Below are positions 29,201 through 48,901 of a DNA stretch of 64,000 nucleotides, piece by piece (within the stretch, counting starts at the first letter, position 1; every line of letters starts with the position of its first letter). A model generated the notes under the pieces. The model saw only the letters and a list, made by a program, of their open reading frames with translations, did not search any database and was not told where the DNA came from. This DNA is from an uncultured delta proteobacterium. GTDB taxonomy: Bacteria; Desulfobacterota; Binatia; UBA9968. The position numbers and the translations under genes were made by a program. The stretch is taken from assembly GCA_963727625.1 (NCBI GenBank), contig CAVSHR010000005.1, positions 160,001 through 224,000 of the forward strand, in the 5' to 3' direction.

Positions 29201-29530
29201 TTATTTTGCCAAGGAACGCACGTAACTTAAAGCTTGTTTCTGTTCTTCTTTGCTAAGTTTAGCTGCAGGCATTTTCCCTGAGCCCTGGGCGATAACCTTC
29301 AAAAGCTCCCCGTCCGGCTTCTTGGCGATATCCTTCGAGGCAATATTCAAGCCCTTTCCCCCGAGAATTTTTGCCATAGCCGGGTTGCCTTTACCGTCTG
29401 CGCCGTGACAACCGATGCACGATTTTTCGTAGAGGGCCTTTCCCGCGTTAGTGTCCGCCCCGACCGCTGTGGAAACCCAACCGCCGACGATCCAGAGAGC
29501 AATGATAAGGGGCAGTATCTTGGTTTTCAT
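29201..29530 (-). CDS. Periplasmic monoheme cytochrome c
   Basis: Signal peptide, CIGCH, distal GKMP Met. Confidence 0.9.
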   Translation of the reverse strand: MKTKILPLIIALWIVGGWVSTAVGADTNAGKALYEKSCIGCHGADGKGNPAMAKILGGKGLNIASKDIAKKPDGELLKVIAQGSGKMPAAKLSKEEQKQALSYVRSLAK

Positions 29531-29631
29531 ATCTCGCTATTAATCCTTTCTGTTTTTAATATTATTAATACCTTACGAGTGTCGATATCGACCAGCACGT
29601 AATATTTTTCAAATCCTAGTGGGCGGCAAAA

Positions 29632-29976
29632 TTATTTCGCCAGAGACCTCGCATAAGCCAAAACATCCTTTTGTTCTTGCTGGCTTAAGCCCTTGCCTGA
29701 AGCAGGCATTTTACCCGCTCCTTGGGCGATGACCTTGAGAAGCTCTTGGTCTTTTTTGGCCTTGGTATCTTTCCCGACGATGTTCAGTCCCTTCTCACCC
29801 AGCGCCTTGATCATGGCCGGATTCCCTTTACCGTCTGCGCCATGGCAGGACACACAAAGCTTATCATAGGTCGCTTTGCCCGGCTTGGCATCGGCCGACC
29901 ATGCGCAAGGACTGTTCCACGCTGTCATTAGAACTATACCCGCCAAAATACCCAACCCTCTACTGAATTGCGTCAT
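29632..29976 (-). CDS. Periplasmic monoheme cytochrome c (tandem paralog)
   Basis: CVSCHGADGKGNPAM, GKMP; near-colinear with 29201-29530. Confidence 0.9.
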   Translation of the reverse strand: MTQFSRGLGILAGIVLMTAWNSPCAWSADAKPGKATYDKLCVSCHGADGKGNPAMIKALGEKGLNIVGKDTKAKKDQELLKVIAQGAGKMPASGKGLSQQEQKDVLAYARSLAK

Positions 29977-30059
29977 TTATTCGCCTCCTTCCGAACGGTT
30001 TTTTCTTAAAAACGCTAATCTCCAACCCATTAGACGATCACACGGCCATTTTCTTTCAA

Positions 30060-31859
30060 TCATGACGCCTTCGCAGCCTGACGAAACAAGTGGCAATCGC
30101 GGCACATCCCCTCAGAGTAATGGTTCGACTTATCGGGATGGCAGCTGTAGCAAACCTCTCTTTTGTTCACCGCCCACTGATGCGGAAGGTGACACAGCGT
30201 GCAGTCGGTTTGGGCGTGAGTCGGTTTTAGATGAAGTTCCGCGCGATTGGGATGGCACGCGATACAGGGCGTAATTGGCTTGACCTCTTGTTCCTTCAGA
30301 TGGCATGTAGCACAGGGCAGCGCTGCCATGGGAGCTCCCGCCGGATGTGTATGGCAAGTCGTGCAATCCGGCGACAGCCCTCTGCCGCGCCAGTGGCATT
30401 GATTACAGGAGAGTTGCGCGTGTTTTCCCAACAACGGCCAGGGGTGTTTGAACGTTTCGGCCGCTGCGACCTCGGTGGGTTTTGGCAGCGCGCTTTCTTG
30501 GCCGATGATTGTATGGCAGAGCTGACAATCTTTACGCAGCACCTTGCCCTCCCGGCTGACATGGTTGCCCTCGTGGCAGCGAAAGCAACCCGGGTAGAGC
30601 GTGTGTCCAATGTTGTCGGGATGGGTGCGCCAATCGACTTTCATTTCAGGAAAAATATTGGTCTGGTAAATCTTCTGCACTTCCCCAATCGCCTTCTTGA
30701 TGGCATCGCGCCGCTCTTGATAAACTTTTGGATACTGCTTCAAGTAGAAAGTATCAAGCGATGTCGCGATGCCTTCTCTGGCCGCCTCTTTGCTCGCGTA
30801 GCTTTGGCTCAAAACGCGCACTGCCTCTCTCTTGATGTAGGGCAAGGTCGAATCGATGAGACTGGTGAAAAGCGCCAAATCCACAGCGCCGTCCGGGTCG
30901 CGAAAAATATGGCTCGGGCGGTTGTGGCAATCGATGCAATCCATCCTGCGGATATCGAGCTTCTTAAGCTCCTCGGCGGTAAGTGAAACCGTGCGATCGA
31001 AGTATTCGGTGACTCTCCCTTGCTTGTCCTTGATTCTGACCCAGGGAATTTTTTGCCGCTGCGGATCGCTGGCTCCGTACCACACTTCGTTGCCGATGTT
31101 CATGTGCCAGTGGATGCCCGCAGTGATGCCCGTGGTCGGACTGCCGCCGCCGGTGCGAAGCAAGCTTCTGATTTGACGCACGCTGTTTTTCTCGTCGTGG
31201 CCAAACCGAGTAATGATCTTTAACTGGGCGCCAAAAAATTTTTCCGGCCAATGGCACTGTTCGCAAGTTTCTTGCGCCGGGCGCAGACTATGCACGGGAG
31301 TGGGGATTGGTCGGGGAAATTTGTGAAACAAGACCGAATAGATCTGATAGACTCCAGACAGCTTCGACCGCACGTACCAGCCCGCTCCCGATCCGACATG
31401 ACATTCGGCGCAGGTCACTCGGGCGTGCGGCGAATCTTGATAAGCGGTGTACTCGGGCTCCATCACGGAGTGACAAAGTTCTCCGCAAAAGGTCACCGAC
31501 TCGGTAAAATGATAGGCTTGATAGCTGACCGTGGAGATCAACCCCATCAGGAAAATGGACGAAACCACGACGAACAAAAAAATCCCGCGAGTTTTGCCAT
31601 TGTTCAAATCGATAACCGCGTAGCGGGGGAGATCTCCGAATCTGACGCGGCGTCGCCGCTCCAAATAAACACCCGCCGGAACAAGGATCACTCCCGCAAG
31701 CAAGAGCACAGGATAAATCATGTAGGTAAAGATGCCGAGGTAGGGATTGGATCTTCCGCTGATCGCCTCGATCAGAAACAAGAACAGAATAGAGACACCG
31801 CTCAGAATGACTAAGCCGGCGCCCACCAGGCTCAACGGGTGACGGAGTAAGTTACGCAT
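30060..31859 (-). CDS. NapC/NirT-family (ImcH-like) membrane multiheme cytochrome c with C-terminal heme extension, 13 heme motifs
   Basis: Three N-terminal TM helices, FCGELCH (CX3CH) plus 12 CxxCH; SPHARVTCAECHVG..WYVRSKLSG, GIHWHM. Confidence 0.8.
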   Translation of the reverse strand: MRNLLRHPLSLVGAGLVILSGVSILFLFLIEAISGRSNPYLGIFTYMIYPVLLLAGVILVPAGVYLERRRRVRFGDLPRYAVIDLNNGKTRGIFLFVVVSSIFLMGLISTVSYQAYHFTESVTFCGELCHSVMEPEYTAYQDSPHARVTCAECHVGSGAGWYVRSKLSGVYQIYSVLFHKFPRPIPTPVHSLRPAQETCEQCHWPEKFFGAQLKIITRFGHDEKNSVRQIRSLLRTGGGSPTTGITAGIHWHMNIGNEVWYGASDPQRQKIPWVRIKDKQGRVTEYFDRTVSLTAEELKKLDIRRMDCIDCHNRPSHIFRDPDGAVDLALFTSLIDSTLPYIKREAVRVLSQSYASKEAAREGIATSLDTFYLKQYPKVYQERRDAIKKAIGEVQKIYQTNIFPEMKVDWRTHPDNIGHTLYPGCFRCHEGNHVSREGKVLRKDCQLCHTIIGQESALPKPTEVAAAETFKHPWPLLGKHAQLSCNQCHWRGRGLSPDCTTCHTHPAGAPMAALPCATCHLKEQEVKPITPCIACHPNRAELHLKPTHAQTDCTLCHLPHQWAVNKREVCYSCHPDKSNHYSEGMCRDCHLFRQAAKAS

Positions 31860-31921
31860 GTTCTAGATTTACGAGCTTTATATTCCTCAAAGACTTAGAT
31901 CCATTTTAAGCAAAAACTGTG

Positions 31922-33886
31922 TCAATTTTCCTCTGTCGTGCGCTCGGGACGCGATTTGTTTTCCGCGTCGCTCCCCGCGGTGTCCGCTTCAGCCATTCGT
32001 TCGCGGGCACGGGTGGCGGGCGTACGGCCATGCCACCAACTGGCATCCATGGGGTAGACCTCCGGGTCAAAAATGACCCAATAAAAATGCCAGACTAAAA
32101 TAGCCAGAGTGGCGAGCACCGCTTCGTAAAAGTGAATGGCGGTCGCGACATCGCTGATCCATTTTGGCAAAAAACTCAGGGCAAAATTCTCAAACCAAAG
32201 GAGAAGGCCGGTCGCGGTCATTAAGAGCATGCCCCACATCAGAGCCCAGTATTCGAGCTTTTCGATATAGCTAAATTTTCCGAACCGCGGCCTAACGCGA
32301 TCTAAACCCAGATTGTAACGTTGCAGGCGAAAAAAATCACCAAAGTCTTTTCGCCGGAACTTTAACCCGCGCAGCTTCGCCCGCACAGACGGACTGATCA
32401 CCAATTGACCAAGATGCCAGAGCAGTGAGCCAATAAGCACCACCGCGGCAATTCGGTGAAGCATGCCGCGCAGCCCGAGCTGCGCTTCCCACGCGAGCAG
32501 CGGAGCCGCCCACCATCCCTCGGGGTATTTCAGTGCAAACCCCGTATAAACCAGCATGAAGAAGCTCACCATGACCAAGCCATGCTGCCAGCGCAGGTCC
32601 TTGCTCATCCTTTCCGGGACATTCACTGGGCCTTCAATAGGTAAGCGTTCGGTTCGTGCTTTACGCAAAAAATCGATTGAATTATGGAGAACCATAAAGC
32701 CGATAGTGACGAAAATAACCCAGAGGTAGATCAGTCGGATCCAATACACGGCCGGCGAACTGACGGCTGAGGCCACAACATGAACCGGCCCTAATGAAAA
32801 TCGTGTTCCAGCTCCTGGATGACACTGCCCGCAAGTCTTGGGAAGATTGGCTTTGTTCACATGAGAGCGTGGATCGGTGGAAGGAAGAATATCGTGCACA
32901 CCGTGGCAGCTCGAGCAGTTAGCAGCCGTCACCTGGCCTGTGCGCAGCGCCAGGCCGTGAAAGCTCTCCTCAAAAGCCGGCACCTTATCCAGCGGCAGTC
33001 CGTATTTCTCACTCAAGCGGGCGCTGCCATGGCACCGCCCGCAGGTCTCACCGGAAACGTTCGCCGCAGAGACCGGTGAGTCCGGTTCATTTCGCTTGAG
33101 GATGCGATGTTCACCATGGCAATCGGTGCACACCGGCGCGTCGCGCACGCCGCGCGCCACTGCTTCACCGTGGATGCTTTTGCTATAAGTGGCGAAAATC
33201 TCGGAATGGCATTTCCCGCAGGTTTCGGGAACTCTGCTGCGCCAAATCTGCGACGCTGGATCGCCGGCGGGAAGTATGGCGTGCGCCCCGTGACAATCCG
33301 TGCAGACTGCGCCGGACTTGTCGGCCGCGACAGCGCGCGCGTGCACGCTCTGCAAATACGCCTCGACGGGCCGGACCAGCGGAATGTGGAATTTCTTTGT
33401 CAACTCCACGTTGGCGTGACAAACTGCGCAAGTCTTGGCGATGTTTTTGGGATGCACGGGGGAGCTCGGCTCGGAGCGGGAGACGAGCTTGTGGATATCG
33501 CCGTGACAGCTCGTGCATGTTGGCGGCTCTTTAAAACCCTGGTTGCGCGCCTTCGCGTGAATGCTTTCCCTATACGCCTTCACGCTCGCAGCATGGCAGC
33601 TATCGCATTGTACCGGCTTCAGTTCGGACTTGTGCGGCACCTGCGAAATATCGCGGTGGCAAGTCGTACACTCAAAGGCCCCATGAATGGATCGGTCGAA
33701 GGTCTCCTGATTGACTTGAAGCGAAATATTTTTGCCGTCGCGGCTCTTTTGCAAACCCGGCACGCTGTGGCAGCCGAGACAAACCTCCTTTGTCACCGGC
33801 TGCGCCCATAACAACGGGACGTATAGGAGGGAGATCAGGAAAACCAAAAAACAAAGACAGAGGCGATCTTTGGTTTCACCGACCAT
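31922..33886 (-). CDS. CbcL-like fusion: 11-heme cytochrome c domain plus FdnI-type cytochrome b domain
   Basis: 11 CxxCH, then WQH..LVYTGF, LHRIAA, KFSYIEKLEYWALMWG, IHFYEAVLATLAILVWHFY. Confidence 0.85.
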   Translation of the reverse strand: MVGETKDRLCLCFLVFLISLLYVPLLWAQPVTKEVCLGCHSVPGLQKSRDGKNISLQVNQETFDRSIHGAFECTTCHRDISQVPHKSELKPVQCDSCHAASVKAYRESIHAKARNQGFKEPPTCTSCHGDIHKLVSRSEPSSPVHPKNIAKTCAVCHANVELTKKFHIPLVRPVEAYLQSVHARAVAADKSGAVCTDCHGAHAILPAGDPASQIWRSRVPETCGKCHSEIFATYSKSIHGEAVARGVRDAPVCTDCHGEHRILKRNEPDSPVSAANVSGETCGRCHGSARLSEKYGLPLDKVPAFEESFHGLALRTGQVTAANCSSCHGVHDILPSTDPRSHVNKANLPKTCGQCHPGAGTRFSLGPVHVVASAVSSPAVYWIRLIYLWVIFVTIGFMVLHNSIDFLRKARTERLPIEGPVNVPERMSKDLRWQHGLVMVSFFMLVYTGFALKYPEGWWAAPLLAWEAQLGLRGMLHRIAAVVLIGSLLWHLGQLVISPSVRAKLRGLKFRRKDFGDFFRLQRYNLGLDRVRPRFGKFSYIEKLEYWALMWGMLLMTATGLLLWFENFALSFLPKWISDVATAIHFYEAVLATLAILVWHFYWVIFDPEVYPMDASWWHGRTPATRARERMAEADTAGSDAENKSRPERTTEEN

Positions 33887-33986
33887 TAGAAAAAGTACTC
33901 AATTAAACGTTGCCGCGGTCTTCCCGGTCGTACCGCCGGCTTGAGGCCTATGCCGCGGATCCACGACCCGGTTTACGTCGTTGGGA

Positions 33987-35087
33987 TCATTTCGTAGCGC
34001 TCATAGTGTAACCAAGATAGGTCAAAACGATCGAGTAAACAATCAGCAACAAGCCGAACGCCGTGGCTAAACGGCCTGCTGACTTGCCGATTAGCGCGCC
34101 GCGCTCAAGAAAAGGCATGCCGACGAGTATGAGACCGATCACTCCAAAGCCGACGACGCCGAGCAGGTCGCCCTCGATTCCGAGAATATGACCCGGCAGC
34201 AGCTTTAGAGTCTGAAACATCGCCATGAAATACCACTCGGGTTTGATGCCGATGGGCGCGGGCTGAAAGGGATCCGCCTTCTTGCCCAACTCGGCCGGAT
34301 AATAGGCGGCCAGAGCCGCGAGCAATCCAAGGACGCAGAGCCAACCGACTAGATCGCGTAAGAAAAAATTCGGGAAAAACGGCATAGTTTTTTTCTCGCC
34401 GCCATTTCGATCAACGCTCGCCGGCCGGCTCATGCCGTGCTTTTGCACCATAAAAAGATGTAGTCCGAGGACGACCGTAACGATCGCCGGCAAGATCGCC
34501 ACGTGGATGCCATAGAAGCGCGTCAGCGTCGCGCCGGTGACATCATTGCCGCCGCGCAGCAACCGGCGCAGAAATGGGCCTACCAGAGGCAAAACCCCGG
34601 GGATTTCGGTGCCGACGCGGGTGGCGAAATAGGCCAGCTCATTCCAGGGCAATAGATATCCGGTAAATCCAAACCCGAGACTGAGACCGAGGAGTCCACC
34701 GCCCGAAAGCCAGGTTAATTCGCGCGGACGCCTGTAGGCATGGAGCAGCAAAGCGCTGAACAGATGAATAAACATGGCCAAGATCATCAGGTTGGCCGAC
34801 CACGAGTGAATCGATCTGACCAGCCAACCGAATTGGACTTCGGTCATGATAAACTGAATGGATTCGAAAGCCTCGCCCGCGCTGGGTCGATAGTAGAGCA
34901 AAAGAAGAATACCCGTGGTGACCTGGATCATAAACAGAAACAACGTCATGCCGCCGAAGTAATACCAAAAAGTGTGACGATGCAGCGGCACCTGTTTTTT
35001 TTTGGCGAGTTTGGCAAAATCGCTAATCCCGATCCGTTCATCGAGCCAGAGCCAGAATTTTCCGTGCTTTACACCGGGAGCGTCCAT
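33987..35087 (-). CDS. petB: Cytochrome b of a Rieske/cytochrome b complex (b6 plus subunit IV fused)
   Basis: [36 protein letters not shown]. Confidence 0.9.
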
Positions 35088-35094
35088 TGCGCGC

Positions 35095-35556
35095 TTATAC
35101 CCTCCTGCTCACGATGATCTGATCGCCGCGCACGTTCACCGTGTACTCGTCCAGAGGTTTTGGCGGAGGTCCCTCGACATTCTTTCCGCTCAAGTCGAAA
35201 TGGCCATTATGGCAGGCGCACCAAATCTGGCTGAGGTCCGGACGATATTGCACGATACAGGCGAGGTGAGTACAGACCGCGGTAAACGCCTTGAGCTCAT
35301 CGTTGGGGGTCCTGATCAAGATTGCCGGTTGGCTGCCAAAGCGGAAGATCTGCCCGCTGTTGGCCTTTATTTCTTGTGGCTTGAGCGAGAGCGTCACCGA
35401 ATGCGCGGTCGATTCTGCAACTTGGGGCGGAATCAAATAACGGCTCAGAGGATAAGTCACCGCAACAAAAAATGCTCCGGCTGTGGTACCCAGGAACCAG
35501 TTGAGAAACCTTCTCCGCCCGTTATCAACCGTCGCCGATATTTCCGAGTGCTCCAT
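35095..35556 (-). CDS. Rieske iron-sulfur subunit
   Basis: Tat [26 protein letters not shown]. Confidence 0.9.
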
Positions 35557-36842
35557 TATTGGTGATTCCCATTTGACCTGTTTGGTTTACTTTCCATTTG
35601 ACGGATCTTGAAGATCAAGCCGACAACTAGCCCCAAGATGATGATCGCCGAGACCGCCAAACCTTTGCGCCGGTAGCCCAATTCATCGAGCGCCTTCAGA
35701 CCTTTCCGGTAGACGGAATCGCTGATTTTGAGCCCGGGCTGGACTTCTTTATTGAAAATCGCCAGGTCGAACCCGTGAATCGCGGCGCGCGATTTGATCA
35801 GCGCGGTCTTGGCATCGTTGAGTTCGAATAGCGGCTGGCTCACTTCCATGCCTGCATGTTCTGCCTGGTTAAGTACCGCGAGCGACCTTTGGTAACTGAG
35901 ATTCAATCGCTCAATGGACGCGAACATGCGCGCCGCCAGCAACCCGCCCGTGGAAGTCGGCGAATGACAAGCCCCACAGATCGACTTGTCGCCGGTGCCC
36001 AACATTGCATCGCTGGTCTTAAGAATGGCGTGGTTGCTGTGACAGGTCGCGCAGCCGGGAGTACCCATTTGCACGAAAATTTTACTGTGCGGGCTTTTAT
36101 TGAACAATTCAAAATTAATTACGTGACACTGGCCGCAAACGTTCACCACCGAAGATATGCCCGGGGGTGCCGCACCGTGATTGCCATGACAGTCATTGCA
36201 GGTTGGCGCCGAAAGGTCCCCTTTGCTCGTCATGATGTTCCAGTGAACGCTTTTTTTATACTGCTCGACCTGGTCGGTGGGGATCTTGTAGGGCGCCATG
36301 TACTCTTTGTTGGCATGACATGATCCGCAAGTGTCAGCAACCCGCAGCGGATAGACGGATGAACGAGAATCATTGGGCGGCCTGATCGAATGCGGGATGT
36401 GGCAACTGGCACAGGTCGCCACTTTCTGATCTTTATGTTCTCTGAGCCTCCTGCCGTGAACCGACGTGTAGTATTCGGCGACCTGATCCACACGAAGGGA
36501 CGGATTGTATTTTTTCATGAAATTTGGGTCGGAATGGCATCGTCCACACACTTCGATGACCTGTGTCCGCGTCGGTTTTCCGATATAGCCCTTTTTCCGG
36601 TCCATCGCTTCCATACCGCCAACCGTGCCATCGCCGCCGTGACAGGCGACACAGCCGAAGCCTTTCGCCGCATGGATGTCTGTTTTATAAAGCTCGGCGG
36701 GCTTGGTCAGACGGTCCACGCCCATCGCCAAGTGGCAAACCGCGCAGCTCTCGGACTGCGGCTGGGCATCGACCCATTCCGGCCATGCCCAAACTAAGAG
36801 AAGCACAAAAGCGGGGACACCCAGACGAGAGAAAATTTTCAT
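35556..36842 (-). CDS. Nonaheme cytochrome c with C-terminal membrane anchor
   Basis: Signal peptide, 9 CxxCH, helical stalk, C-terminal TM GLAVSAIIILGLVVGLIF. Confidence 0.85.
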   Translation of the reverse strand: MKIFSRLGVPAFVLLLVWAWPEWVDAQPQSESCAVCHLAMGVDRLTKPAELYKTDIHAAKGFGCVACHGGDGTVGGMEAMDRKKGYIGKPTRTQVIEVCGRCHSDPNFMKKYNPSLRVDQVAEYYTSVHGRRLREHKDQKVATCASCHIPHSIRPPNDSRSSVYPLRVADTCGSCHANKEYMAPYKIPTDQVEQYKKSVHWNIMTSKGDLSAPTCNDCHGNHGAAPPGISSVVNVCGQCHVINFELFNKSPHSKIFVQMGTPGCATCHSNHAILKTSDAMLGTGDKSICGACHSPTSTGGLLAARMFASIERLNLSYQRSLAVLNQAEHAGMEVSQPLFELNDAKTALIKSRAAIHGFDLAIFNKEVQPGLKISDSVYRKGLKALDELGYRRKGLAVSAIIILGLVVGLIFKIRQMESKPNRSNGNHQ

Positions 36843-38038: not shown

Positions 38039-38178
38039 GGCTCTTTCCCCTTTCCTCGGCGAGCGCCGCGCCGCCCGGCGCGGCAAATTTCGGCGCCGCG
38101 ATCTCTCGCTCGATTCCAGCAAGATACTTTTTCACGCCAAAGGACTTCCTTTGTTCGCGTGGTAGGGGTCCAGCGCGC

Positions 38179-39375: not shown

Positions 39376-39622
39376 GCTTCCTCCCGTGCAATGCCACTCC
39401 CCAAAAAACGTAAAATACCACGCCGATAAACACGAGAAAAATCGGTATCGCTACGATCGATATTCCCACAGACGCTTGAATGAAATCGTCCAGGCGCCAA
39501 GAAGCGACGATCAGATGAATGATCCAGACAATGATTCCGCCGACGAGCAGGAAAGCGCCCCCCAACCAGATCCATTGCAACGTTCTAATCAGCCGTTCTG
39601 ACACTGCAGGCGGACGTTCCAT
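39365..39622 (-). CDS. Small two-TM membrane protein, probable complex subunit
   Basis: AAGGAG RBS; two hydrophobic segments; coupled between the NrfD gene and the tetraheme gene. Confidence 0.7.
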   Translation of the reverse strand: MERPPAVSERLIRTLQWIWLGGAFLLVGGIIVWIIHLIVASWRLDDFIQASVGISIVAIPIFLVFIGVVFYVFWGVALHGRKRED

Positions 39623-39642
39623 GGTGCTCCTTGGCAAGCCTT

Positions 39643-40986: not shown

Positions 40987-41653
40987 CCTCCGTCAGATAA
41001 ATCACCTTGGGCTTGGTGCCCAACTCTTCTTGAAGTTTAAACGCCCGCGGGCTGCGCGCCAGTTGCGCGACCTCGCTCGCGGGATCGGCCAGGTCGCCGA
41101 AGACAATTGCCTTGGCAGGACACGCTTCCGCGCAGGCAGGGACGTACTCGGTTGGATCGAATTCCCGTTTTTCGGCCAGCGCCCGCTCGCGCGCCTTTTG
41201 CAAGCGGTGGTGGCAGAACGTGCACTTCTCGACGACGCCTTTCGGGCGCACGGAAACATCCGGATTTTGTCCGGGCGCTTCCTTTTGGTAGCTATACCAA
41301 TTGAAATACTTGGCGTTGTATGGACAGGCGGCCATGCAAAATCGGCAGCCGATACAACGGGCGTAAATCTGCGCGACGATGCCCTCGGGATTTCGGTAGG
41401 TGGCATAAACCGGACAGACCTTCGTGCAAGGAGGATCGTCGCACTGGAGACAGGGCCGTGGAATGAATCGCATCTTTTCGCCCTGGTGCTCATCATCGGT
41501 TTCCGTCAGCACTTGCATCCAGCTGATCACCCGGCCGCGCTTTGACTCGTCGGCACCGACCGCGGGAACGTTGTTCTCGGCCTTGCAGGCGATCACGCAG
41601 GCCTGGCATCCGGTGCAACGATCAAGATCAATCACCATACCCCACAGTGCCAC
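40970..41653 (-). CDS. 4Fe-4S dicluster subunit (NrfC/QrcC/ActB2-like)
   Basis: WGMVIDLDRCTGCQACVIAC, CLQCDDPPCTKVCP, CIGCRFCMAACPY, KCTFC..PACAEACP. Confidence 0.92.
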   Translation of the reverse strand: MALWGMVIDLDRCTGCQACVIACKAENNVPAVGADESKRGRVISWMQVLTETDDEHQGEKMRFIPRPCLQCDDPPCTKVCPVYATYRNPEGIVAQIYARCIGCRFCMAACPYNAKYFNWYSYQKEAPGQNPDVSVRPKGVVEKCTFCHHRLQKARERALAEKREFDPTEYVPACAEACPAKAIVFGDLADPASEVAQLARSPRAFKLQEELGTKPKVIYLTEGEGGG

Positions 41654-44068
41654 TTACGCCCTCCTCAATTTTACTTGCGTGTTGTTGAGCACGCCGAAGC
41701 CCCTTAAAATATCGGTCTCGTTCTCGATTAAATCGTTAGGGTTTGGCCCTTCGCCGCCGAACAATGGAATATGGACAATATCTGGAACAGTGCCGGAGTA
41801 TAATTTGGCGCGCAGTTTTATTCGGCCCTTTGCCGATTCGACCCACACCCAATCGTTCTGTTTGACACCTAGTGCCGCGGCCGTTTGGGGATGGATCTCC
41901 ACCCAACCTTCCCAGGAAGCCCGGAGGTGCACGGCTGGCTGTTCCAGCAGCCAAGGTTGGTTCTTGCCGCCGCCCATGGGCCGGCTCATCAGCCGGTAAG
42001 TATTGAGTCGAAGCGGAAACGACTCCGTTTTCTTGGCGCTCCGAATCGCCACCGCCGGCAGGTAAACTAAGTCCTCCGATTTGTCGGCGCCAAATTTCGC
42101 GAGCAGAGATTTGCGCGCATCTTGCGTCGGTGCGCGCTTGTCGAGCCATTGCTTGAGTCGCATGGAGTAAAATTCGAATTTCCCTGACGGTGTTTGCAGC
42201 AAAGCACCGCGACTCACCGGCAGGTTGCTCGGATCCCACCACGCTCCCCGCTGCAGCAAGGCATTCCAGAAAGCATTGTAGTCCTGGAATTCGGGCAGCC
42301 AGTAGCCCTGCCGCTCCAGGATCTTGCGGAGCGCTTCCTGGGAATTGACGGAAACGACGTAGCCTCGGCCGGCCTTGAAGAGCCCTTCCGCGCCTGCGTG
42401 GAGCAGTTCTTCAAAATTTTTCCACGGGAAATTTTTCGCCACCGTACCGCCGAGGGACTGCGCCAGCTGCAGGATCACGTCGGCGGTATTGCGCGACTGG
42501 TGCAGCGGCTTAGACGCAGGACGCGCGACGCTGAAACAAGTAAAGCCCGCCAGATGGTTGACCTGATCGTCTTGCCACCGCTCAAGGTAAGTCTGGTCGG
42601 GCAAAATAAGGTCCGCCATGGCGCTCGATTCGTCAAGGAAAGGTGTGAAGCTGACGATGAAAGGGATCTTCTTAAACGCCGCGGCGAATGCTTCCTTTGC
42701 CGGATGATTGGCGAGCGGGTTGGTGGCGAACAAGAATAAAGCGTTGACCGGGTAGGGCTTTCCACTCAAGATCCGTTGCGGCAAAAGCTGCGGCGCATCG
42801 TCAACCATAAAATAGTTTTTCTCGCCGGCGCCGTCGACCCGCGTCTGCGCCGCGCCTTGCCGCGCCGCCGCGTCGAGATCGAGCGCCGGTAACGGCATCA
42901 ACGGAAGTTCGCCTTGAGACCGTAATCCGCCTGTGACGCCGATGTTTCCGGCCAGGGCATTCAAGCTATGAATCGCCATGCGGGTGTAGATGTCATCGGA
43001 GCCGTAAGCCGGGCCGCGCTCGCCGATAACGATGGCGGGTTTGTTGGTCGCGAGACCGCGCGCAATTTCCAAGATGCTTTTCACCGGCACGCCGGTGGCA
43101 GCGGAGACCGTGAACAGGCCGTAATCCCTCAAGACGAGATTTTTAAAACCGAGATGCTGCTGTCCCTTGGGGTCGACCCAGTCTTCGAAGCCGAAAGTGG
43201 ATCGCTCGACGAATTTTTCGTCATAAAGCCCTTCGCGGATCAAGGCATTGGCGATGCCGAGGGCCAAGATTCCATCGGTTCCGGGGATGATGGGAATCCA
43301 CCGATCGGCCTTGATTGCCGTCGGCGAACGGCGCGGGTCGACCTGAACGAGCAAACCTCGTGGCCGATCGCCACTGCGGCGCAAGCGCGCGAACGCCTGT
43401 GATGCATGAACCGGCCCGACCCATGATTCCAGCAAGCTCGCGCCAAAGGAGAGGATGAACTGGGACTCCGCTAAATCGTAGGCGAGCGGCGTCGTCACTC
43501 CTTGCATGAGTTGATGCGCCAGCGCCGGCTTTTCCGGCGCAAAACAACGCAAGCGAATATAATTGGGCGTGCCGTAGGCTCGCGCGAATCGGTTCCACAA
43601 CTGATCGCGGTAACCGCGGTACTGCCCACCGAGGATCGCCACCGTGTGTGACAGTGCTTTCGCTCTGAGATCGGTCATACGCGCCGTGACCATGGACAAG
43701 GCCTCGTCCCAGCCAATGGAGCGGAATCGGCCCCGCTCACCGGCACGAACCAGCGGACCCTTGATACGATTGGGGTCGTAAAGAAGTTCCAGCCCGCCGA
43801 ACGCTTTAGGACAGACCGAACCGCGATTGATCGGATGAAACGGGTTTCCCGAGATTCCGCCAACTTCCCCGTCGAGCGTGCGCGCCAGCAAGCCGCAGCC
43901 ACCCGGGCACTGCTGGCAGATCGTCGGAACCACAACCTCCTCCGGCCTCGCCCACCGCTGCACGTCACCGGCGACCTGATCGACGGCAGAGAGCCGGTTT
44001 TGCATCAGAGCCGCCGCGCCCGCAGCACCGGTCAGGGTTTGAATGAATCGTCGTCGAGTAAAACGCAT
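41654..44068 (-). CDS. Molybdopterin oxidoreductase-family subunit (QrcB/ActB1/PsrA-like), Tat-exported
   Basis: TRRRF, CQQCPGGCG...CPK, GTPNYIRLRC, VDPRRSPTAIKADRW, ADLILP..YLE, VEIHP. Confidence 0.85.
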   Translation of the reverse strand: MRFTRRRFIQTLTGAAGAAALMQNRLSAVDQVAGDVQRWARPEEVVVPTICQQCPGGCGLLARTLDGEVGGISGNPFHPINRGSVCPKAFGGLELLYDPNRIKGPLVRAGERGRFRSIGWDEALSMVTARMTDLRAKALSHTVAILGGQYRGYRDQLWNRFARAYGTPNYIRLRCFAPEKPALAHQLMQGVTTPLAYDLAESQFILSFGASLLESWVGPVHASQAFARLRRSGDRPRGLLVQVDPRRSPTAIKADRWIPIIPGTDGILALGIANALIREGLYDEKFVERSTFGFEDWVDPKGQQHLGFKNLVLRDYGLFTVSAATGVPVKSILEIARGLATNKPAIVIGERGPAYGSDDIYTRMAIHSLNALAGNIGVTGGLRSQGELPLMPLPALDLDAAARQGAAQTRVDGAGEKNYFMVDDAPQLLPQRILSGKPYPVNALFLFATNPLANHPAKEAFAAAFKKIPFIVSFTPFLDESSAMADLILPDQTYLERWQDDQVNHLAGFTCFSVARPASKPLHQSRNTADVILQLAQSLGGTVAKNFPWKNFEELLHAGAEGLFKAGRGYVVSVNSQEALRKILERQGYWLPEFQDYNAFWNALLQRGAWWDPSNLPVSRGALLQTPSGKFEFYSMRLKQWLDKRAPTQDARKSLLAKFGADKSEDLVYLPAVAIRSAKKTESFPLRLNTYRLMSRPMGGGKNQPWLLEQPAVHLRASWEGWVEIHPQTAAALGVKQNDWVWVESAKGRIKLRAKLYSGTVPDIVHIPLFGGEGPNPNDLIENETDILRGFGVLNNTQVKLRRA

Positions 44069-44076
44069 CGCACGCC

Positions 44077-44649
44077 TCACCTATGGCAAGTGACACAATC
44101 GTTAACTAAGCGCTGTCGCGAAACGGCGCTCGGATGCAAAGCACCGACCTTGGCACTGGCAAATGATTTAGTCTGCGTATGACAATCTATGCAATCCGCC
44201 ATTTTGAGACTTTTAAGCGGACGGGGCGGAGGACGATCGAGGGTTTCCATGGGGCCGTGGCATGATTGGCAAGCGAGCTTGGCGACCGATACATGGACTC
44301 GATGCGAGAAAAATACATGCGAGGGTAAGCGCCATACCCGTCGCCAAGGGATTTCTTGTCCCTTTTCACCAAAGGCCTTGAGCTTACGAATCTCCGGGCT
44401 TTTGGAATCCCCGCCGGCGTGGCAGGCAAGACATAACGCCGTGGGCGGCCGCCCGGCGACAAGATCCTTTTCGGCGCGCTGATGGCAACCCGTGCATGGA
44501 ATTTTTTGCGCGATATGTGTTTTATGGGGAAACTCGATGGGCTGCTTAACGGCTGGCGCGCCCCAATCGGCTCCGTAACCGAAGGCCAACGCGACCAAGA
44601 CAATTCCAAGGATTATGATTACTCGTTTCACCCGCAATCGTGCAGCCAT
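44077..44649 (-). CDS. Pentaheme cytochrome c (ActA/QrcA-like)
   Basis: N-terminal TM, QPIEFPHKTH, 5 CxxCH, IPWRRVWRLPSHVFFSH. Confidence 0.9.
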   Translation of the reverse strand: MAARLRVKRVIIILGIVLVALAFGYGADWGAPAVKQPIEFPHKTHIAQKIPCTGCHQRAEKDLVAGRPPTALCLACHAGGDSKSPEIRKLKAFGEKGQEIPWRRVWRLPSHVFFSHRVHVSVAKLACQSCHGPMETLDRPPPRPLKSLKMADCIDCHTQTKSFASAKVGALHPSAVSRQRLVNDCVTCHR

Positions 44650-44700
44650 TAACCCGCTACTACGCTCCTTGATCACACCGGCGATTTTAGAATCGATTAC

Positions 44701-44716
44701 CGCAAGCTGTGTGCCA
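44701..44716 (-). promoter_or_regulatory. Sigma54 (-24/-12) promoter upstream of the pentaheme gene
   Basis: TGGCAC-ACAGC-TTGCG, full consensus, ~52 nt before ATG. Confidence 0.7.
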
Positions 44717-44871
44717 GGAGTCTTAGCTGGGAGATTCGTCACGAAACGGCGATTATTTCCTGGAGATAAGAAATAATCTTAAAAACAGTCGCAGGTTTTG
44801 GAACCGCAAAAGAAAAAAACCGGTGCTAGTGAGGGCTTAAGAGAGAATCGCCGATATTGCGTCTGAGAGAA

Positions 44872-44910
44872 ACCCGCATCTCTCCGGCGAACCGCTGGAC
44901 AGATGCGGGT
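44872..44910 (-). terminator. Hairpin after mtrA-mtrB-cytochrome c unit
   Basis: acccgcatct-ctccggcg-aac-cgctggac-agatgcgggt. Confidence 0.6.
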
Positions 44911-44925
44911 AAAGAAACTCGCAGG

Positions 44926-45303
44926 TTATTTAGCCGGCTTGTAAGGAGGATTGGCGATGCTACGAATATAGGCGACGACGTCCCAGATCTCTTGGTCGGT
45001 CAGCTTCTTTTTCGACGCCGGCATGAACGGCGCTTTTTTCATCGCCGCGCCGCCGTTTTTGATGATGTCAAACAAATACTTGTCGCTCAGCGCGTTCATC
45101 ACTTTGCCGTTAGTGTGATCCTGCGGTTTGGGATTCAAAGCGGCGGCGGCCGGTCCGTCGCCCTTGCCGGTAGCACCGTGACAGCCGACACAATTGGCAT
45201 CGTATTTGACTTTCCCGGCTTTAGCGTCGCCCTTCGTCTGAGCGAACGCCATACCTGAAAAAAGTGATACCACAAGCAAAGCCCAGGAAATTTTCCGGCT
45301 CAT
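44926..45303 (-). CDS. Periplasmic monoheme cytochrome c (MtoD-like position)
   Basis: Signal peptide, CVGCHGATGKGDGP, FMP. Confidence 0.9.
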   Translation of the reverse strand: MSRKISWALLVVSLFSGMAFAQTKGDAKAGKVKYDANCVGCHGATGKGDGPAAAALNPKPQDHTNGKVMNALSDKYLFDIIKNGGAAMKKAPFMPASKKKLTDQEIWDVVAYIRSIANPPYKPAK

Positions 45304-45418
45304 TACCTAAGTCTCCCTTTTTGACCGTTTAGACGAATGCACTGCAGTTTTATTCGAACTCCCCCCATACTGGATTTAACCATCAAGATTCAACTACTCG
45401 CCAGTACCTAGACAGTAA

Positions 45419-47569
45419 CTAGAACTTGAACTTCAGCCCGATCATACCGACATGAGCCGTGTACGACCCTTTGAACTGATCACCGAGATAGATCGAGCGC
45501 AGTTGGCCTGAGTTCGTATCGAGATCTCCCATCCAGAGCTTCATGATGTCGACTCCGTAGTCTTTACTGTCAAAGCGATTGAAGTAATAGCCGACTTGCA
45601 GGGCAACATTTTTGTGTATCTGATATTCGAGCCGGGCAAGCAACTCATGCCAGGAGTTGCTGTTATTGGGCCAGTTCGGGTCCTCGTTCGTGTTGTGGTT
45701 GGTGATTTGGCTCACGCCCCGTGAGAATCCATACTGGATCCGAAATCCCAGAACGTTTTTGATGAGATCCACATCGCTGCCCAGGCTAAATGTATTGACG
45801 ACATCTTTGCCACGGCTGTGACTGGGGTCGTCATCATACTTCTGGTTCCAGCTAGACCAGTCGAAATTGTAATCGGCGAAGAACTTAAGCCATTCTAGCG
45901 GAGCATAAACAGCACCTATAGAGGGGGAGTAGTTCTGATCGTTGTGTAGGCGGCGGTCGACTTCAGGATAGTTATTGCTGAGGTAATCAAATCCAGCGTG
46001 GAAGCCGAGAGTCTCCCAGGGGCTGACGTCGGCGAACAGGCTGACTTTGTCCTGATTGCGTTTCGTCAGAAAGAACATCTGGCTACGGTTCTCGCCGTGG
46101 TAGCCCGGAGCGAAGCGCCAGGAATGTTGGTAGGATGCCCTGAGCAACAACCAGGAGAGCGGCCTGATGTCAACCGTCGGCTTGATCTTGAATTCGTCCT
46201 GGTTCAGGGGCTCGGTAAAGCCTCCATCCGCAATGTCGTTTATGGACCTGTGGGTTTTCTCCCAACTAAAATCAAACTTTCCCGTAAGCCACCGAGTGAA
46301 ACTATAGCCCGCTCCGACACCGGCACTATTCTTCGAGTACCGATAAGGATAGGCCATCATCCAATCGTTAGCGCCGGAAGCGCCCTGATCATTGCGCACC
46401 GTTCCATTGGTCGAGACCGGTTTGGTGCGGTTATCCAAGTCATAGAAGCGATAGTAGGCCTTCAGGTTCAAACGGTCGACGAATTTGTTGACAAAGGTAA
46501 GGTTGACCATCGTTGGCCGGACATCCCCCTCCAGGCTATTCCGGCTCAACATCGGCTGCGGTATGGCGCTGTTAATCGTGAAAGGTAAAAAGGAATCATC
46601 CTGAAGCCTCCAGCCGTATGAAACCGTGCCCAAAAAGTGGGTCTTCAGGGGAAGCTTGGCCGTTCCGGTCAGGGTAAAAGTATGGGCCTGGTTGCTGGGA
46701 TAAAGATCGACGCGCCCACGGCAAGGCCCTGCGCCGGTGGTGTAGTCAATGACCGCGGCGTCGGTGCATCCGGGCCCCGTGGCCGCCGGATTGTCAAAAA
46801 TAAGCGTGCTAATGTTGTTGTGGAAAACCGAACCGTTGTACTTAAGCCCCAGCGACCAGCCTTTGCCGGCATACTCTCCGCCAAGCTCGATATTGTGGGT
46901 CCGGTAGTCGATCGGTTCGGCAAGCTCGGTAATGCCGCTGGAGCTGCCTGTCCCAATTGGAAATGCGATCGCTCTTTTACCGTCCGTGTTTTGCTGCCAG
47001 TATTTGCCGGTGAAGCTCCATCCTGAGTTGGGTGTGTAGCGGACCGAGATCTTGCCGATCTTATTAAGCATCTTCAGGTCAATGTCTCTTGTGGTACTGG
47101 GGTCGTTGATCCAGTTTGAGAATGTCGTTGCGTCATCCGCAGTGGGTCTGCTACGCAACGTGTAGGTACCGCCCCTCATCCGAAAGGGAGTACGGGCGTT
47201 GTCGATATTAAAGACATGCGGGATCTGGTCCCACTCGAGCTCGACATTGAAGAGCCCATACCGACCGAAGCGCAAACTATAGTTCTGATCGTCGCGGCCC
47301 ACTGAGCCGGCGTCAAATTTGAAAAAGAAGTCCTGCTTCTTACTGCCGATCATCAACTCGAGTTGGGGCACGACAACGCTTTCTGGGATATCCCGGTATC
47401 CCTGGAACCTCGACTGATCGCCTTGAAACGCCCTTGGCAGCCCATCCACCTCCGCCGAACCACTGAGCGTGTAATTGCCGATGTCGATTTCCGCCCGGGC
47501 AGCAGAGGCCGAGACCAAAACGAGCGCAAGGCTTAAACTTACAATCAAGAAACTAGCTCTCCGTTCCAT
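45419..47569 (-). CDS. mtrB: MtrB/PioB-family decaheme-associated outer-membrane beta-barrel
   Basis: 716 aa, signal peptide, LAEPIDY, PSNQAH, Q.D.FLPFTIN, terminal Phe; directly after the decaheme gene. Confidence 0.9.
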   Translation of the reverse strand: MERRASFLIVSLSLALVLVSASAARAEIDIGNYTLSGSAEVDGLPRAFQGDQSRFQGYRDIPESVVVPQLELMIGSKKQDFFFKFDAGSVGRDDQNYSLRFGRYGLFNVELEWDQIPHVFNIDNARTPFRMRGGTYTLRSRPTADDATTFSNWINDPSTTRDIDLKMLNKIGKISVRYTPNSGWSFTGKYWQQNTDGKRAIAFPIGTGSSSGITELAEPIDYRTHNIELGGEYAGKGWSLGLKYNGSVFHNNISTLIFDNPAATGPGCTDAAVIDYTTGAGPCRGRVDLYPSNQAHTFTLTGTAKLPLKTHFLGTVSYGWRLQDDSFLPFTINSAIPQPMLSRNSLEGDVRPTMVNLTFVNKFVDRLNLKAYYRFYDLDNRTKPVSTNGTVRNDQGASGANDWMMAYPYRYSKNSAGVGAGYSFTRWLTGKFDFSWEKTHRSINDIADGGFTEPLNQDEFKIKPTVDIRPLSWLLLRASYQHSWRFAPGYHGENRSQMFFLTKRNQDKVSLFADVSPWETLGFHAGFDYLSNNYPEVDRRLHNDQNYSPSIGAVYAPLEWLKFFADYNFDWSSWNQKYDDDPSHSRGKDVVNTFSLGSDVDLIKNVLGFRIQYGFSRGVSQITNHNTNEDPNWPNNSNSWHELLARLEYQIHKNVALQVGYYFNRFDSKDYGVDIMKLWMGDLDTNSGQLRSIYLGDQFKGSYTAHVGMIGLKFKF

Positions 47570-47580
47570 CTCAGACCTCC

Positions 47581-48519
47581 TTATCTCTGAAAGAACATTC
47601 CAGCCGGATGATTCGAGCCATGGATTTGGCTGTGACAGTTGGCGCAGCTCCGGTTGAAAAAGCCACGCTGGGTTTTCAGATCATTGGTTCTATGACCCGA
47701 GTGGCACTGGGTACAAAGCCTCGGCATGCGCACCTTGAGCAAACGGTCATTGACGCTGCCGTGCGGTTCGTGGCAATTGGTGCAATTATCAGAAACCGGC
47801 GGATGCTCAAAAAGAAATGGCCCGCGCCGCTCGGCGTGGCAGGTGTAACAGTTCTCGTTGACACTCGCCTGTATGAGCTGAGAAGGGTTCGGCGTTCCGT
47901 GCGGGTTATGGCAATCCGTACAGGTAATCTTTCCTTCCCTCATGGGCATGTGGGAAGAACGCATCAGCTGCGCTTTTCTCTGGAGATGACATTGGCCGCA
48001 AACCTCGGCTTCGGCCCGCTTGTTGTAGAATGGAGTCTTTTCTCCGACCTTGGCAAGCTGGTAGCGATCGGTGGTTTTTTCCATAATGGTGTGGCAATTG
48101 ACGCAGGCTATTCCCCGGCTCGCGTGCGGGCTTGCCTCCCAGTAGGTTTGGATACCGCGCTGGTGACAACCAAGACATGCTTCATTTTGGACTTTCGCCG
48201 ACTCCCCCGAGTCCTTGCGGAATGTGATCAGTCCGCCGACTCCTTTGCCGCCACCGGCCGCGACGTGGTTGCTTCCAGGACCGTGGCAGCTCTCGCACGC
48301 TTGTTTTTCCATCGCGTTACGCGGATTGTGCAGAAAAATCTTGCCCATGACGGTCTGCGAGAATTTTTCCACCTGCGCCCCGTGGCACGCTTGGCAAACT
48401 TCGCTGCCCATATAAGTAGCCGGGGCAGGCTTGGCCGCATCGGCCGAGGCCGACCACGCGAGTCGTGCGGACCCAACTAAAGATAATATAAAAATCGTGG
48501 CAATCACGGACCGCTTCAT
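47581..48519 (-). CDS. mtrA: DmsE/MtrA/PioA-family decaheme cytochrome c
   Basis: 10 CxxCH; CESCHGPGSNH, SSHMP, CHNPHG, ERRGPFLFEHPPV, CHSQIHGSNHP. Confidence 0.93.
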   Translation of the reverse strand: MKRSVIATIFILSLVGSARLAWSASADAAKPAPATYMGSEVCQACHGAQVEKFSQTVMGKIFLHNPRNAMEKQACESCHGPGSNHVAAGGGKGVGGLITFRKDSGESAKVQNEACLGCHQRGIQTYWEASPHASRGIACVNCHTIMEKTTDRYQLAKVGEKTPFYNKRAEAEVCGQCHLQRKAQLMRSSHMPMREGKITCTDCHNPHGTPNPSQLIQASVNENCYTCHAERRGPFLFEHPPVSDNCTNCHEPHGSVNDRLLKVRMPRLCTQCHSGHRTNDLKTQRGFFNRSCANCHSQIHGSNHPAGMFFQR

Positions 48520-48607
48520 GAATCCTCCGTGGCGAATTTGGCAACAAGCGTTAAACAGATGATATGCCATAGGCTTATAGCACTGAGGAAATATCCAAGT
48601 CTATGGG

Positions 48608-48901
48608 TCAACTGGCCCAATTTTCGTCACTGTCTTGCAAATTCTGACGCCACAGCTCCAACGGACAGCTCACCTGTTTTCGCACCGGACAGCCATCGAG
48701 AGTTAGAGCGTAGATCGCCGCCTCGATGCGATTGCGCAAGCGCAGTTTCCGCAGAATATTTTCCACGTGGCGCTTCACGGTGGCCGGACTGATACGCAGG
48801 TCCGAGGCGATTTCGCGATTGGTTTTGGACCGCGAGATCAACCGCAGCACGCGTCCTTCGGCCGCGGTCAGGCCCTCTACCGTGCATTTAGAAACATTCA
48901 C
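48608..48901 (-). CDS. Stand-alone LuxR-type HTH regulator
   Basis: LTAAEGRVLRLI..SKTNREIASDLRISPATVKRHVENILRKL.LRNR. Confidence 0.85.
   Translation of the reverse strand: MNVSKCTVEGLTAAEGRVLRLISRSKTNREIASDLRISPATVKRHVENILRKLRLRNRIEAAIYALTLDGCPVRKQVSCPLELWRQNLQDSDENWAS

Follow-up and report, generated by a model that had tools for sequence, protein, structure and literature searches.

An MtrAB locus with four candidate quinone-pool interfaces in a Binatia bacterium is a conserved variant of a known cluster type

Does a gene locus that joins an outer-membrane electron conduit to several quinone-linked complexes represent a new system for extracellular electron transfer, or is it put together from parts that also occur on their own? 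This question is raised by positions 29201-48901 of a 64,000-nucleotide stretch of DNA (the window; contig CAVSHR010000005.1, positions 160,001 to 224,000, assembly GCA_963727625.1) from an uncultured bacterium of the Binatia lineage UBA9968. An earlier note, made from the letters of the window, had called the locus an all-in-one supercluster. We find that the locus is real and made of two or three separable modules, and that it is a conserved variant of a type of cluster known since 2013, i.e. not a new kind of system. One part of it is odd: its subunit B1, a member of a molybdenum enzyme-like family, may, judging from conserved residues, still hold the molybdenum cofactor that its relatives have lost.

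A contig of 1.1 Mb carries the window; the genome assembly to which it belongs has 6.6 Mb (98.45% complete), and the names of the closest homologues and loci indicate Candidatus Binatia. The locus comprises 18 contiguous genes, all on the minus strand, in the order luxR, decaheme cytochrome, porin, monoheme cytochrome c, pentaheme cytochrome, B1, iron-sulfur (FeS) protein, NrfD, an 85-aa protein with two transmembrane helices (2-TM), two tetraheme cytochromes, nonaheme cytochrome, Rieske protein, cytochrome b, an 11-heme/cytochrome b fusion, a NapC-type multiheme cytochrome and two monoheme cytochromes c (Table 1). Order and co-directionality are as the earlier note had given them; it had counted 17 genes, and with luxR (48608-48901, PF00196) there are 18. 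The canonical CxxCH motifs of the cytochromes add up to 58 (10+1+5+4+4+9+11+12+1+1), and the previous total of 59 heme motifs is reached only when the single CX3CH of the NapC-type protein (CGELCH, residue 125) is counted, which gives that protein 13. A CxxCH in the FeS subunit falls inside the FeS cysteine motifs and was excluded from the heme sites; with it included, the 17 proteins hold 59 CxxCH, whereas 1000 shuffles of each protein give 0.31 on average and never more than 3. Seven of the 13 proteins of the genome with at least three CxxCH, and with them 55 of 89 motifs, are encoded in the locus. Since a canonical alternative complex III (ACIII) beside a CtaD-type oxidase is present elsewhere in the genome, routine aerobic respiration is covered there, and the locus, given its large share of the multiheme motifs, has the look of a dedicated addition. 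Intergenic gaps of -17 to 276 bp fit one to three transcription units, and the GC content stays at 52-60% throughout the region without a break. Scans for promoters (11 vs 9.3 +/- 2.6) and terminators (29 vs 25.4 +/- 5.5) remained at chance level. Of four public expression runs, the best sharing 0.11 of words, three were compared and gave short contigs; in the one metatranscriptome those listed had 151-256 bases and lay on tetraheme 1, NrfD, FeS, B1 and MtrB, and as this library may hold DNA we counted them as no evidence of expression. A look-up in a protein atlas returned unnamed cytochrome c clusters only.

Domain and family models bore out the identities first given to MtrA, MtrB, the Rieske protein, cytochrome b, the 11-heme fusion and the NapC/NirT protein. 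The genes mtrA and mtrB are adjacent with a gap of 11 bp and correspond to a porin-cytochrome conduit of the MtrAB/MtoAB/PioAB type. Neither MtrC/OmcA (TIGR03507) nor a second 10-heme protein was found in the 98.45%-complete assembly. Orthologues of the luxR gene (58-65% identity) lie upstream of mtrA in five related loci (L010, L015, L019, L021, L032). The Rieske/cytochrome b module shows the Rieske boxes, four His heme ligands, the PEWY motif and an adjacent c-type subunit. Box II is without the Ser and Tyr that are typical of Rieske proteins with a high potential. In mutagenesis of Rieske proteins the loss of Ser or Tyr results in a low potential, and the box of the window protein suggests a low-potential quinone. 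The 11-heme fusion has the architecture by which CbcL-like proteins are defined, i.e. an N-terminal multiheme part (3-23 hemes) and a HydC/FdnI-like b-type domain with His residues (401/435/477/491/585/600); this assignment is by layout, not by alignment with Geobacter proteins, and the TIGR01583 match is under the cut-off. Likewise, the transmembrane helices (at 12, 42 and 93) and the NapC/NirT features of the multiheme protein downstream match the layout of ImcH, but its 12-13 hemes exceed the published 6-10. Orthologues of this ImcH-like protein, with 73-82% identity, occur in five of five Binatia-type genomes tested. PDB searches yielded no solved relative of ImcH or CbcL. The layouts of both proteins agree with the definitions given for ImcH, CbcL and MtrH/MtoC (PMC6295460); compared with the systems treated there, the window differs in the higher heme number of the ImcH-like protein and in holding both genes in one locus with MtrAB. 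That cbcL, mtrH or mtoC adjoins mtrAB in several genomes was already noted by Zhong and Shi in 2018 (PMC6295460).

Between the conduit and the Rieske module lies a core that has the combination diagnostic of ACIII, i.e. a pentaheme ActA, a B subunit and an NrfD protein of the ActC type. The NrfD protein is 35-37% identical to the two ActC proteins of the genome and 18-19% to QrcD-type proteins from two other loci (L093, L094). Asp120 and Val222 replace a His and an Asp of ActC, which we take to be residues of the quinone site. Qrc identity was rejected, as the A, B, C and D subunits score below the NCBIfam cut-offs (80 < 180, 285 < 440, 288 < 400 and 48 < 570) and the NrfD protein is not QrcD-like. 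The former label 'Qrc/ACIII' should be narrowed, as the membrane subunit resembles ActC and not QrcD, and the module passes neither family. Like ACIII (ActABCDEF; 6F0K, 6BTM, 6LOD, 8K9E), the core has a pentaheme ActA, a molybdenum enzyme-like B1, an FeS subunit B2 and an ActC-like subunit, followed by a small 2-TM protein and c-type cytochromes. Unlike ACIII, its B subunit is split and keeps FS0 and a Cys at the ligand position, its 2-TM protein is not ActD, tetrahemes replace the monoheme ActE, and no oxidase genes follow. The gene list of the locus contains neither ActF, the second NrfD paralogue, nor a monoheme ActE; ActF is likewise missing from actABCDE variants described in Nitrospirales (PMC12342949). 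With QrcABCD of Desulfovibrio the core shares the order multiheme A, cofactor-family B, FeS C and NrfD D as well as the split B, whereas the family scores, the NrfD identity, the extra subunits and the phylogenetic branch all differ.

The small subunits were inspected individually. ActD (PF11821) was rejected as an identity for the 2-TM protein, which has no Pfam match and which hhalign aligned to the ActD of the same genome with a probability of 0.2%. A predicted complex of the 2-TM protein with NrfD scored 0.39 against 0.00 for the best control and was graded weak; the runs agree in at least 76% of contacts, with a predicted local distance difference test (pLDDT) value of at least 67 for the partner. 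For such predictions, 116 of 157 solved pairs and 2 of 215 mismatched ones attain the mark applied; among those that do, 18 solved pairs and both mismatched pairs score 0.60 or under. Each tetraheme protein consists of four class-I domains with the pattern CxxCH...WNHxxxM. One of the eight domains, domain 3 of tetraheme 2, has WNK instead of WNH, and a changed or open axial ligand is possible there. In the PDB, tetraheme 1 found a weak NorC-like match only. Taken as a statement about clustering, the claim that one locus holds an outer-membrane conduit and four quinone-pool interfaces is confirmed in gene identities and order.

Table 1. Genes of the locus in transcriptional order, with window positions and the basis of each assignment.
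Feature	Positions	Strand	Basis
Stand-alone LuxR/GerE helix-turn-helix regulator, 97 aa	48608..48901	-	PF00196, E 2e-16
MtrA/MtoA/DmsE-family decaheme cytochrome, 10 CxxCH	47581..48570, likely start 48519	-	TIGR03508, 257 > 192
MtrB/PioB outer-membrane beta-barrel	45419..47569	-	PF11854; TIGR03509, 272 > 240
Periplasmic monoheme cytochrome c, MtoD-like position	44926..45303	-	PF00034; MtoD likeness by position alone
ActA/QrcA-like membrane-anchored pentaheme cytochrome	44077..44742	-	5 CxxCH; QrcA model 80 bits < 180
B1, Tat (twin-arginine translocation)-exported Mo-bisPGD-family-like subunit	41654..44080	-	PF04879/PF00384/PF01568; RR motif
B2 tetra-cubane FeS subunit, 16 Cys in four motifs	40970..41653	-	QrcC model 288 bits < 400
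NrfD-family quinone-binding membrane subunit, ActC-like	39643..40986	-	PF03916; best PDB match ActC 6f0k_C, E 1e-76
85-aa two-helix membrane protein, ActD position	39365..39622	-	no Pfam match
Tetraheme cytochrome 1, four class-I c domains, ActE position	38179..39375	-	PF00034 x4
Tetraheme cytochrome 2, 40% paralogue of tetraheme 1	36839..38122, likely start 38038	-	domain/motif comparison
Nonaheme cytochrome, C-terminal membrane anchor	35556..36842	-	9 CxxCH, C-terminal transmembrane helix
Rieske 2Fe-2S protein, box II CACHNGHF	35095..35556	-	PF00355
Unsplit cytochrome b; H94, H108, H195, H210; PEWY; no heme-ci Cys	33987..35087	-	PF00033 + PF00032
CbcL/MtrH/MtoC-like, 11 hemes fused to FdnI/HydC-type cytochrome b domain	31922..33886	-	PF01292, E 3.5e-12
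ImcH-like, 3 N-terminal transmembrane helices, NapC/NirT domain, 12 CxxCH + 1 CX3CH	30060..31859	-	PF03264
Periplasmic monoheme cytochrome c	29632..29976	-	PF13442/PF00034
Periplasmic monoheme cytochrome c	29201..29530	-	58% paralogue of the 29632..29976 gene

The suggestion that this combination might be undescribed did not survive a look at the literature. In 2013, Castelle et al. reported for RBG-1 (Zixibacteria) a cluster with MtrA, MtrB, two monoheme and several multiheme cytochromes and PetAB, and without MtrC (PMC3903129). Table S1 of that paper assigns to RBG1_768-781 MtrA, MtrB, two monoheme cytochromes, FeS, NrfD and Hmc protein 4, and furthermore cytochromes with 13, 11, 19 (plus heme b), 6 and 9 hemes, petB and petA; by the paper's own counts the cluster amounts to about 70 hemes. 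By eye, from the unaligned entries, we take RBG1_779-781 to be orthologues of the nonaheme, cytochrome b and Rieske genes of the window, the 11-heme and 19-heme/heme-b proteins (RBG1_776 and 777) to be CbcL-like and the 6-heme protein (RBG1_778) to be ImcH-like. On this reading, the 2013 paper already presented a conduit with four quinone interfaces, although ImcH and CbcL are not named in it. The nonaheme gene, which overlaps the Rieske gene by 1 bp in the window and belongs to the same trio in RBG-1, is likely to encode the c subunit of the Rieske/cytochrome b complex. Both clusters, each known from genes alone, share MtrAB without MtrC, two monoheme cytochromes, FeS and NrfD genes and the nonaheme-petB-petA trio. 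They differ in that RBG-1, according to its table, has an Hmc-like NrfD module, no B1, pentaheme or tetrahemes, and two convergent halves, whereas the window is co-directional with an ACIII-like core, three monohemes and a 12-13-heme ImcH. By gene content, the locus would be classed as an RBG-1-type Mtr/PetAB cluster with a different type of NrfD module. A similar cluster is ascribed to Methylomirabilis oxyfera, which has the closest homologues of the RBG-1 MtrA, MtrB, petA and petB (legend of Fig. S9, PMC3903129).

The core has a precedent of its own. Begmatov et al. (2022) described in the MBNT15 bacterium SHF-111 an ACIII-like 'cluster 4', located far from oxidase genes and proposed to serve Fe(III) reduction (PMC9386147). 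It comprises ActABCD and a four-heme ActE-like protein, from which we infer that it is the same complex as the core. A genome of the MBNT15 family (L044) carries the first four genes of the window core, with 70% identity in B1. The description of cluster 4 mentions no MtrAB, Rieske protein or Mo-ligand Cys (PMC9386147). For the exact gene order in Binatia our literature search found no paper; Fig. S9 of PMC3903129, Fig. 4 of PMC9386147 and reviews may bear on it. The accessible parts of PMC3362086, PMC5317091, PMC11264602 and PMC12133095 contain no match to the cluster, sections 9 and 11 of a 2026 peat preprint (10.64898/2026.05.27.727921) deal with other architectures, and the 'Unk' clade of Duval 2008 has the order BCA, unlike the window core (PMC2500031).

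How far the arrangement is conserved was examined by a GTDB scan, which gave 54 loci (from the best 80 of 188 confirmed stretches, some repeating genomes fetched earlier) in Binatia, Rokubacteria/Methylomirabilota, MBNT15, Myxococcales and others. A distant set comprises 80 metagenome loci with an NrfD about 60% identical. Neighbours were counted only in loci with enough flank. All 43 such loci have the pentaheme gene directly before B1, all 31 close ones have the 2-TM gene, and a tetraheme gene follows NrfD in 30/31 close and 48/54 distant ones. Rieske/cytochrome b genes lie downstream of the core in 11/21 close and 13/16 distant loci, the latter mostly with a different gene order. The expected synteny was recovered: in a genome of another genus of the same family (G303) the order of the window runs from mtrA to the imcH-like gene, then to a monoheme c gene and the alkaline-phosphatase flank, and in G062 it recurs with insertions, namely split CbcL-like pairs, a two-component system and a second FeS/NrfD module. 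A chimeric assembly was rejected, as the exact order lies on one contig of G303 and the extended order on one contig of G062, with even GC. Two further genomes (G063, G064) extend from the core to the imcH-like gene and have a second ACIII-like operon upstream in place of mtrAB. A B1 orthologue (73-86% identity) was found in only six of 60 related genomes, five of them among the 30 of the same genus, and the locus is therefore patchy.

The surroundings of the core in the relatives are varied. Near it, within loci L008-L061, 21 loci have a gene for a histidine kinase, together with one for a response regulator in 17. Other recurrent neighbours encode an EB_dh heme-b protein (8 loci), a cupredoxin-like protein (7), an outer-membrane barrel of the MetA type (6) and a diheme c (4), and radical-SAM heme-biosynthesis-like genes occur as well. 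Flanking genes also include napA (above cut-off; L092:3227-5857), a cytochrome cd1 gene of the NirS type (L037:2863-4485) and a TtrA-like gene (L029:19149-22412), hinting at links to nitrate, nitrite or sulfur respiration. Distant metagenome contigs (L099, L112, L131, L137, L147 and others) commonly have a distinct layout, in which tetraheme-FeS-NrfD comes first and pentaheme-B1-FeS-NrfD-tetraheme x2-cytochrome b-Rieske-pentaheme follows, i.e. two NrfD modules plus a Rieske complex in a single run.

What, then, would the locus do? There is in our estimate about an even chance that it is a modular extracellular electron transfer hub of a Binatia-type heterotroph, in which quinol oxidases feed MtrAB in the outward direction by a route that is set by the acceptor potential. 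Four inner-membrane complexes, the ImcH-like, the CbcL-like, the nonaheme-Rieske-cytochrome b and the ACIII-like one, would take electrons from quinol and hand them to tetraheme or monoheme periplasmic c-type carriers and on to MtrA inside MtrB. Because MtrC is lacking, the outlet would mainly serve acceptors that are soluble or close to the surface, for instance humic quinones, chelated Fe(III) or Mn, or shuttles. With several quinol oxidases that differ in proton yield, the cell could adapt to the potential of the acceptor, just as ImcH and CbcL operate in distinct potential windows in Geobacter. MtrA and MtrB score above curated cut-offs and NrfD is nearer to ActC than to QrcD, both of which speak for this hub. 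Moreover, where relatives of ImcH, CbcL, Rieske/cytochrome b and ActC have been characterised, they are mostly quinol oxidases, which favours outward flow; Act oxidises menaquinol and Qrc reduces menaquinone (Duarte 2018, PMC6303296), and ImcH homologues are reported in Fe(III) reducers only (Zhong and Shi 2018, PMC6295460). By analogy with these systems, we infer quinol oxidation, monoheme shuttling, outward direction, potential tuning and co-transcription, and the potential-tuned or bidirectional flow envisaged at the outset is plausible.

Several observations weigh against the hub. MqnA/D, MenB and MqnC have no match above cut-off in the 98%-complete genome, which is rich in quinone-dependent complexes. 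The CbcL and ImcH identities come from domain layout and not from comparison with the Geobacter proteins, the published reading of the MtrC-less RBG-1 cluster is a different one, and a conserved Cys in B1 is not explained by a pure scaffold (both discussed below). Among the 25 loci with at least 6 kb upstream of the core, mtrA/B lies there in ten, twice on the opposite strand. The core of G403 is located about 75 kb from a mtrAB-tetraheme-nonaheme-Rieske-cytochrome b-CbcL-ImcH block; at this distance it need not serve MtrAB. The notion 'all-in-one' is overstated, since the modules occur separately in relatives. The 15 of 25 loci without mtrAB upstream, the split in G403 and core neighbours such as cytochrome cd1 (L037), the TtrA-like gene (L029) and Crp-type regulators (L041) could also be accounted for by loose clustering. 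According to this proposal, the ACIII-like core and the Rieske/cytochrome b complex would serve periplasmic respiration (denitrification or other periplasmic reductases), and MtrAB, CbcL and ImcH would be a separate module, adjacent in some Binatia only through shared anaerobic regulation of c-type genes. We regard it as improbable, somewhat more so than the inward flow treated below, as the full order occurs in at least three genomes (the host, G303 and G062), MtrA also follows a core of the distant set (L100), and RBG-1, which belongs to another phylum, combines MtrAB with an NrfD module, Rieske/cytochrome b and genes of the CbcL and ImcH kinds.

Electrons may also flow inward, as in Mto/Pio systems. 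MtrAB would then take electrons from Fe(II), reduced humics or minerals for mixotrophic Fe(II) oxidation, and the monohemes would pass them to oxygen or nitrate reductases encoded elsewhere, with the Rieske/cytochrome b or ACIII-like complex pushing some uphill to quinone. The absence of MtrC and the monoheme c gene directly after mtrB agree with this, and Castelle et al. considered Fe(II) oxidation the more likely function of the RBG-1 cluster (PMC3903129). In addition, the host possesses the CtaD-type oxidase beside the canonical ACIII and two operons of the type-II dimethyl sulfoxide (DMSO) reductase family (Nar/NXR-like), and napA is found directly upstream of the mtrAB block in L092. On the other hand, no RuBisCO was found in the genome, which weakens the case for reverse electron flow, ImcH is so far reported from Fe(III) reducers only (PMC6295460), and the C subunit is ActC-like and not QrcD-like. 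We rate inward flow as rather unlikely and prefer the outward hub. A convincing NirS was not detected in the host genome. It contains three further loci with a cytochrome b gene, and next to two of these a Rieske-type gene was seen. One Nar/NXR-like operon (L176; C5:1027792-1039794) lies directly downstream of genes for a 7-heme cytochrome and a cytochrome b; the second (C3:204781-212242) includes an EB_dh/diheme subunit.

The remaining question concerns B1. By analogy with ACIII and Qrc, it is most likely an FeS-bearing scaffold or wire. It scores below the cut-offs for QrcB (285 < 440), PhsA and ArrA (NF041714, 242 < 1600). B1 keeps the FS0 motif (C55, C58, C62 and C90) together with K92, and C179 aligns with a Cys of PsrA, and lies two residues short of a Cys of ArrA; in PsrA and ArrA these serve as Mo ligands. 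All 120 close homologues have the Cys and 119 of them FS0 plus Lys, and the Cys is kept in members of the B1 clade as distant as 43-53% identity. Invariant Arg residues surround it. These features are what one would expect of a true enzyme with a molybdenum or tungsten bis-pyranopterin guanine dinucleotide cofactor (Mo/W-bisPGD), a relative of ArrA/ArxA that acts on an anionic substrate while the core connects it to quinone and the tetrahemes, irrespective of the direction of flow. A structural model built from 137 diverse homologues (pLDDT 92, predicted template modelling score 0.92; the 39 close homologues alone gave pLDDT 45) points the same way. Its nearest fold is ArrA (Foldseek E 2e-53; Z 43.0, rmsd 3.0 A, 723 residues aligned), ahead of PsrA (Z 33.9) and ActB (Z 27-29, 560-581 residues aligned), with the reservation that Z is sensitive to the length aligned. 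All three residues of the basic triad K92/R696/R700 are found in 13 of the 15 clade members, in 9 of 14 references of the catalytic type and in 2 of 127 relatives without the Cys, kin not being independent.

B1 thus resembles ArrAB and ArxAB2CD, its closest PDB matches in fold and sequence, in the Tat signal, FS0 and the Cys near the ligand position. It departs from them in family score, in the active-site motif (GGQY where ArrA/ArxA have RGRY/GRGW) and in a ligand loop that is two residues shorter and without the ArrA His; D483 is common to B1 and cofactor-less forms. The locus contains no arsenic genes and no TorD-type chaperone gene, the two PF02613 genes of the genome belonging to the Nar/NXR-like operons. 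On 39 diagnostic columns, the choice of which shaped the ranges of both reference groups, the B1 clade reaches 12-19, catalytic-type proteins 16-38 and Cys-less ones 3-19 (median 10). The majority of 139 proteins that represent the wider family have FS0 and are without the Cys. It is absent from 42 of the 45 readable B1 loops in distant loci of the same layout (present in three) and from both B1 proteins of L088 and L089; ACIII-like layouts therefore exist without it. A catalytic B1 is possible, and we consider it distinctly the weaker prospect beside the scaffold.

In a quick maximum likelihood tree (69 selected rows, 762 columns, ligand loop removed) the B1 clade is sister to tetraheme-associated B1 and QrcB (SH-aLRT 96), with Cys-bearing rows near the base. 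Presence of the Cys requires at least nine state changes on this tree, and a tree joining the B1 clade with ArrA/ArxA was not rejected (p-AU 0.55). According to Wells et al. (2023), ActB derived from ArrAB by cofactor loss (PMC10100899), and the B1 clade would fit an intermediate between ArrA-type and cofactor-less forms. The boldest version of this idea, namely that B1 still binds Mo/W-bisPGD and that the core is a living intermediate and a new, widespread molybdoenzyme with an Arg-lined anion site, wired to MtrAB in Binatia, we deem doubtful. No report of a Mo-ligand Cys in an ACIII-like B1 was found in the literature; older ACIII/Rieske reviews may cover it. The host encodes a second ACIII (L178; C4:121590-129156), with no oxidase adjoining in the stretch viewed, in which the fused ActB keeps four FS0 cysteines (PF04879), cysteines that we take to be missing from the solved ActB structures. 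In two other loci (L027:858-5269 and L051:629-5284), a second Mo-enzyme/FeS/NrfD operon lies beside the core; the large subunit, with the ArrA/ArxA-type loop HSSIC, groups with ArrA/ArxA and is an uncharacterised molybdoenzyme.

The neighbourhood of the locus in the window contains, directly upstream of luxR and co-directional with it (49167-50378, minus strand), a fusion of a rubrerythrin/ferritin-like part with VIT1, by its domains an iron-handling membrane protein; L092 likewise has a VIT1 homologue upstream of its Mtr block. The other flank is formed by an alkaline phosphatase gene (27230-29086, plus strand), which accompanies the cluster in G062 and G303 as well. An ExeA-like AAA ATPase with an SH3 domain is encoded at 50673-52274 (plus strand).

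Binatia and Rokubacteria are frequent in soil and groundwater metagenomes, and a full-text search retrieved little literature on extracellular electron transfer in Binatia. The locus gives these bacteria a complete candidate route for electron exchange with humics or metals, and with several quinone interfaces under one regulator it would be a compact system for tuning electron export to the acceptor potential outside Geobacter. If B1 holds molybdenum, the DMSO reductase family would gain another enzyme with an unassigned substrate, spread over Binatia, Rokubacteria/Methylomirabilota, MBNT15 and Myxococcota, and this would bear on the origin of ACIII and Qrc from ArrA-like enzymes, as proposed in PMC10100899. 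In Binatia, it would couple a reaction of a dissolved substrate to extracellular electron exchange.

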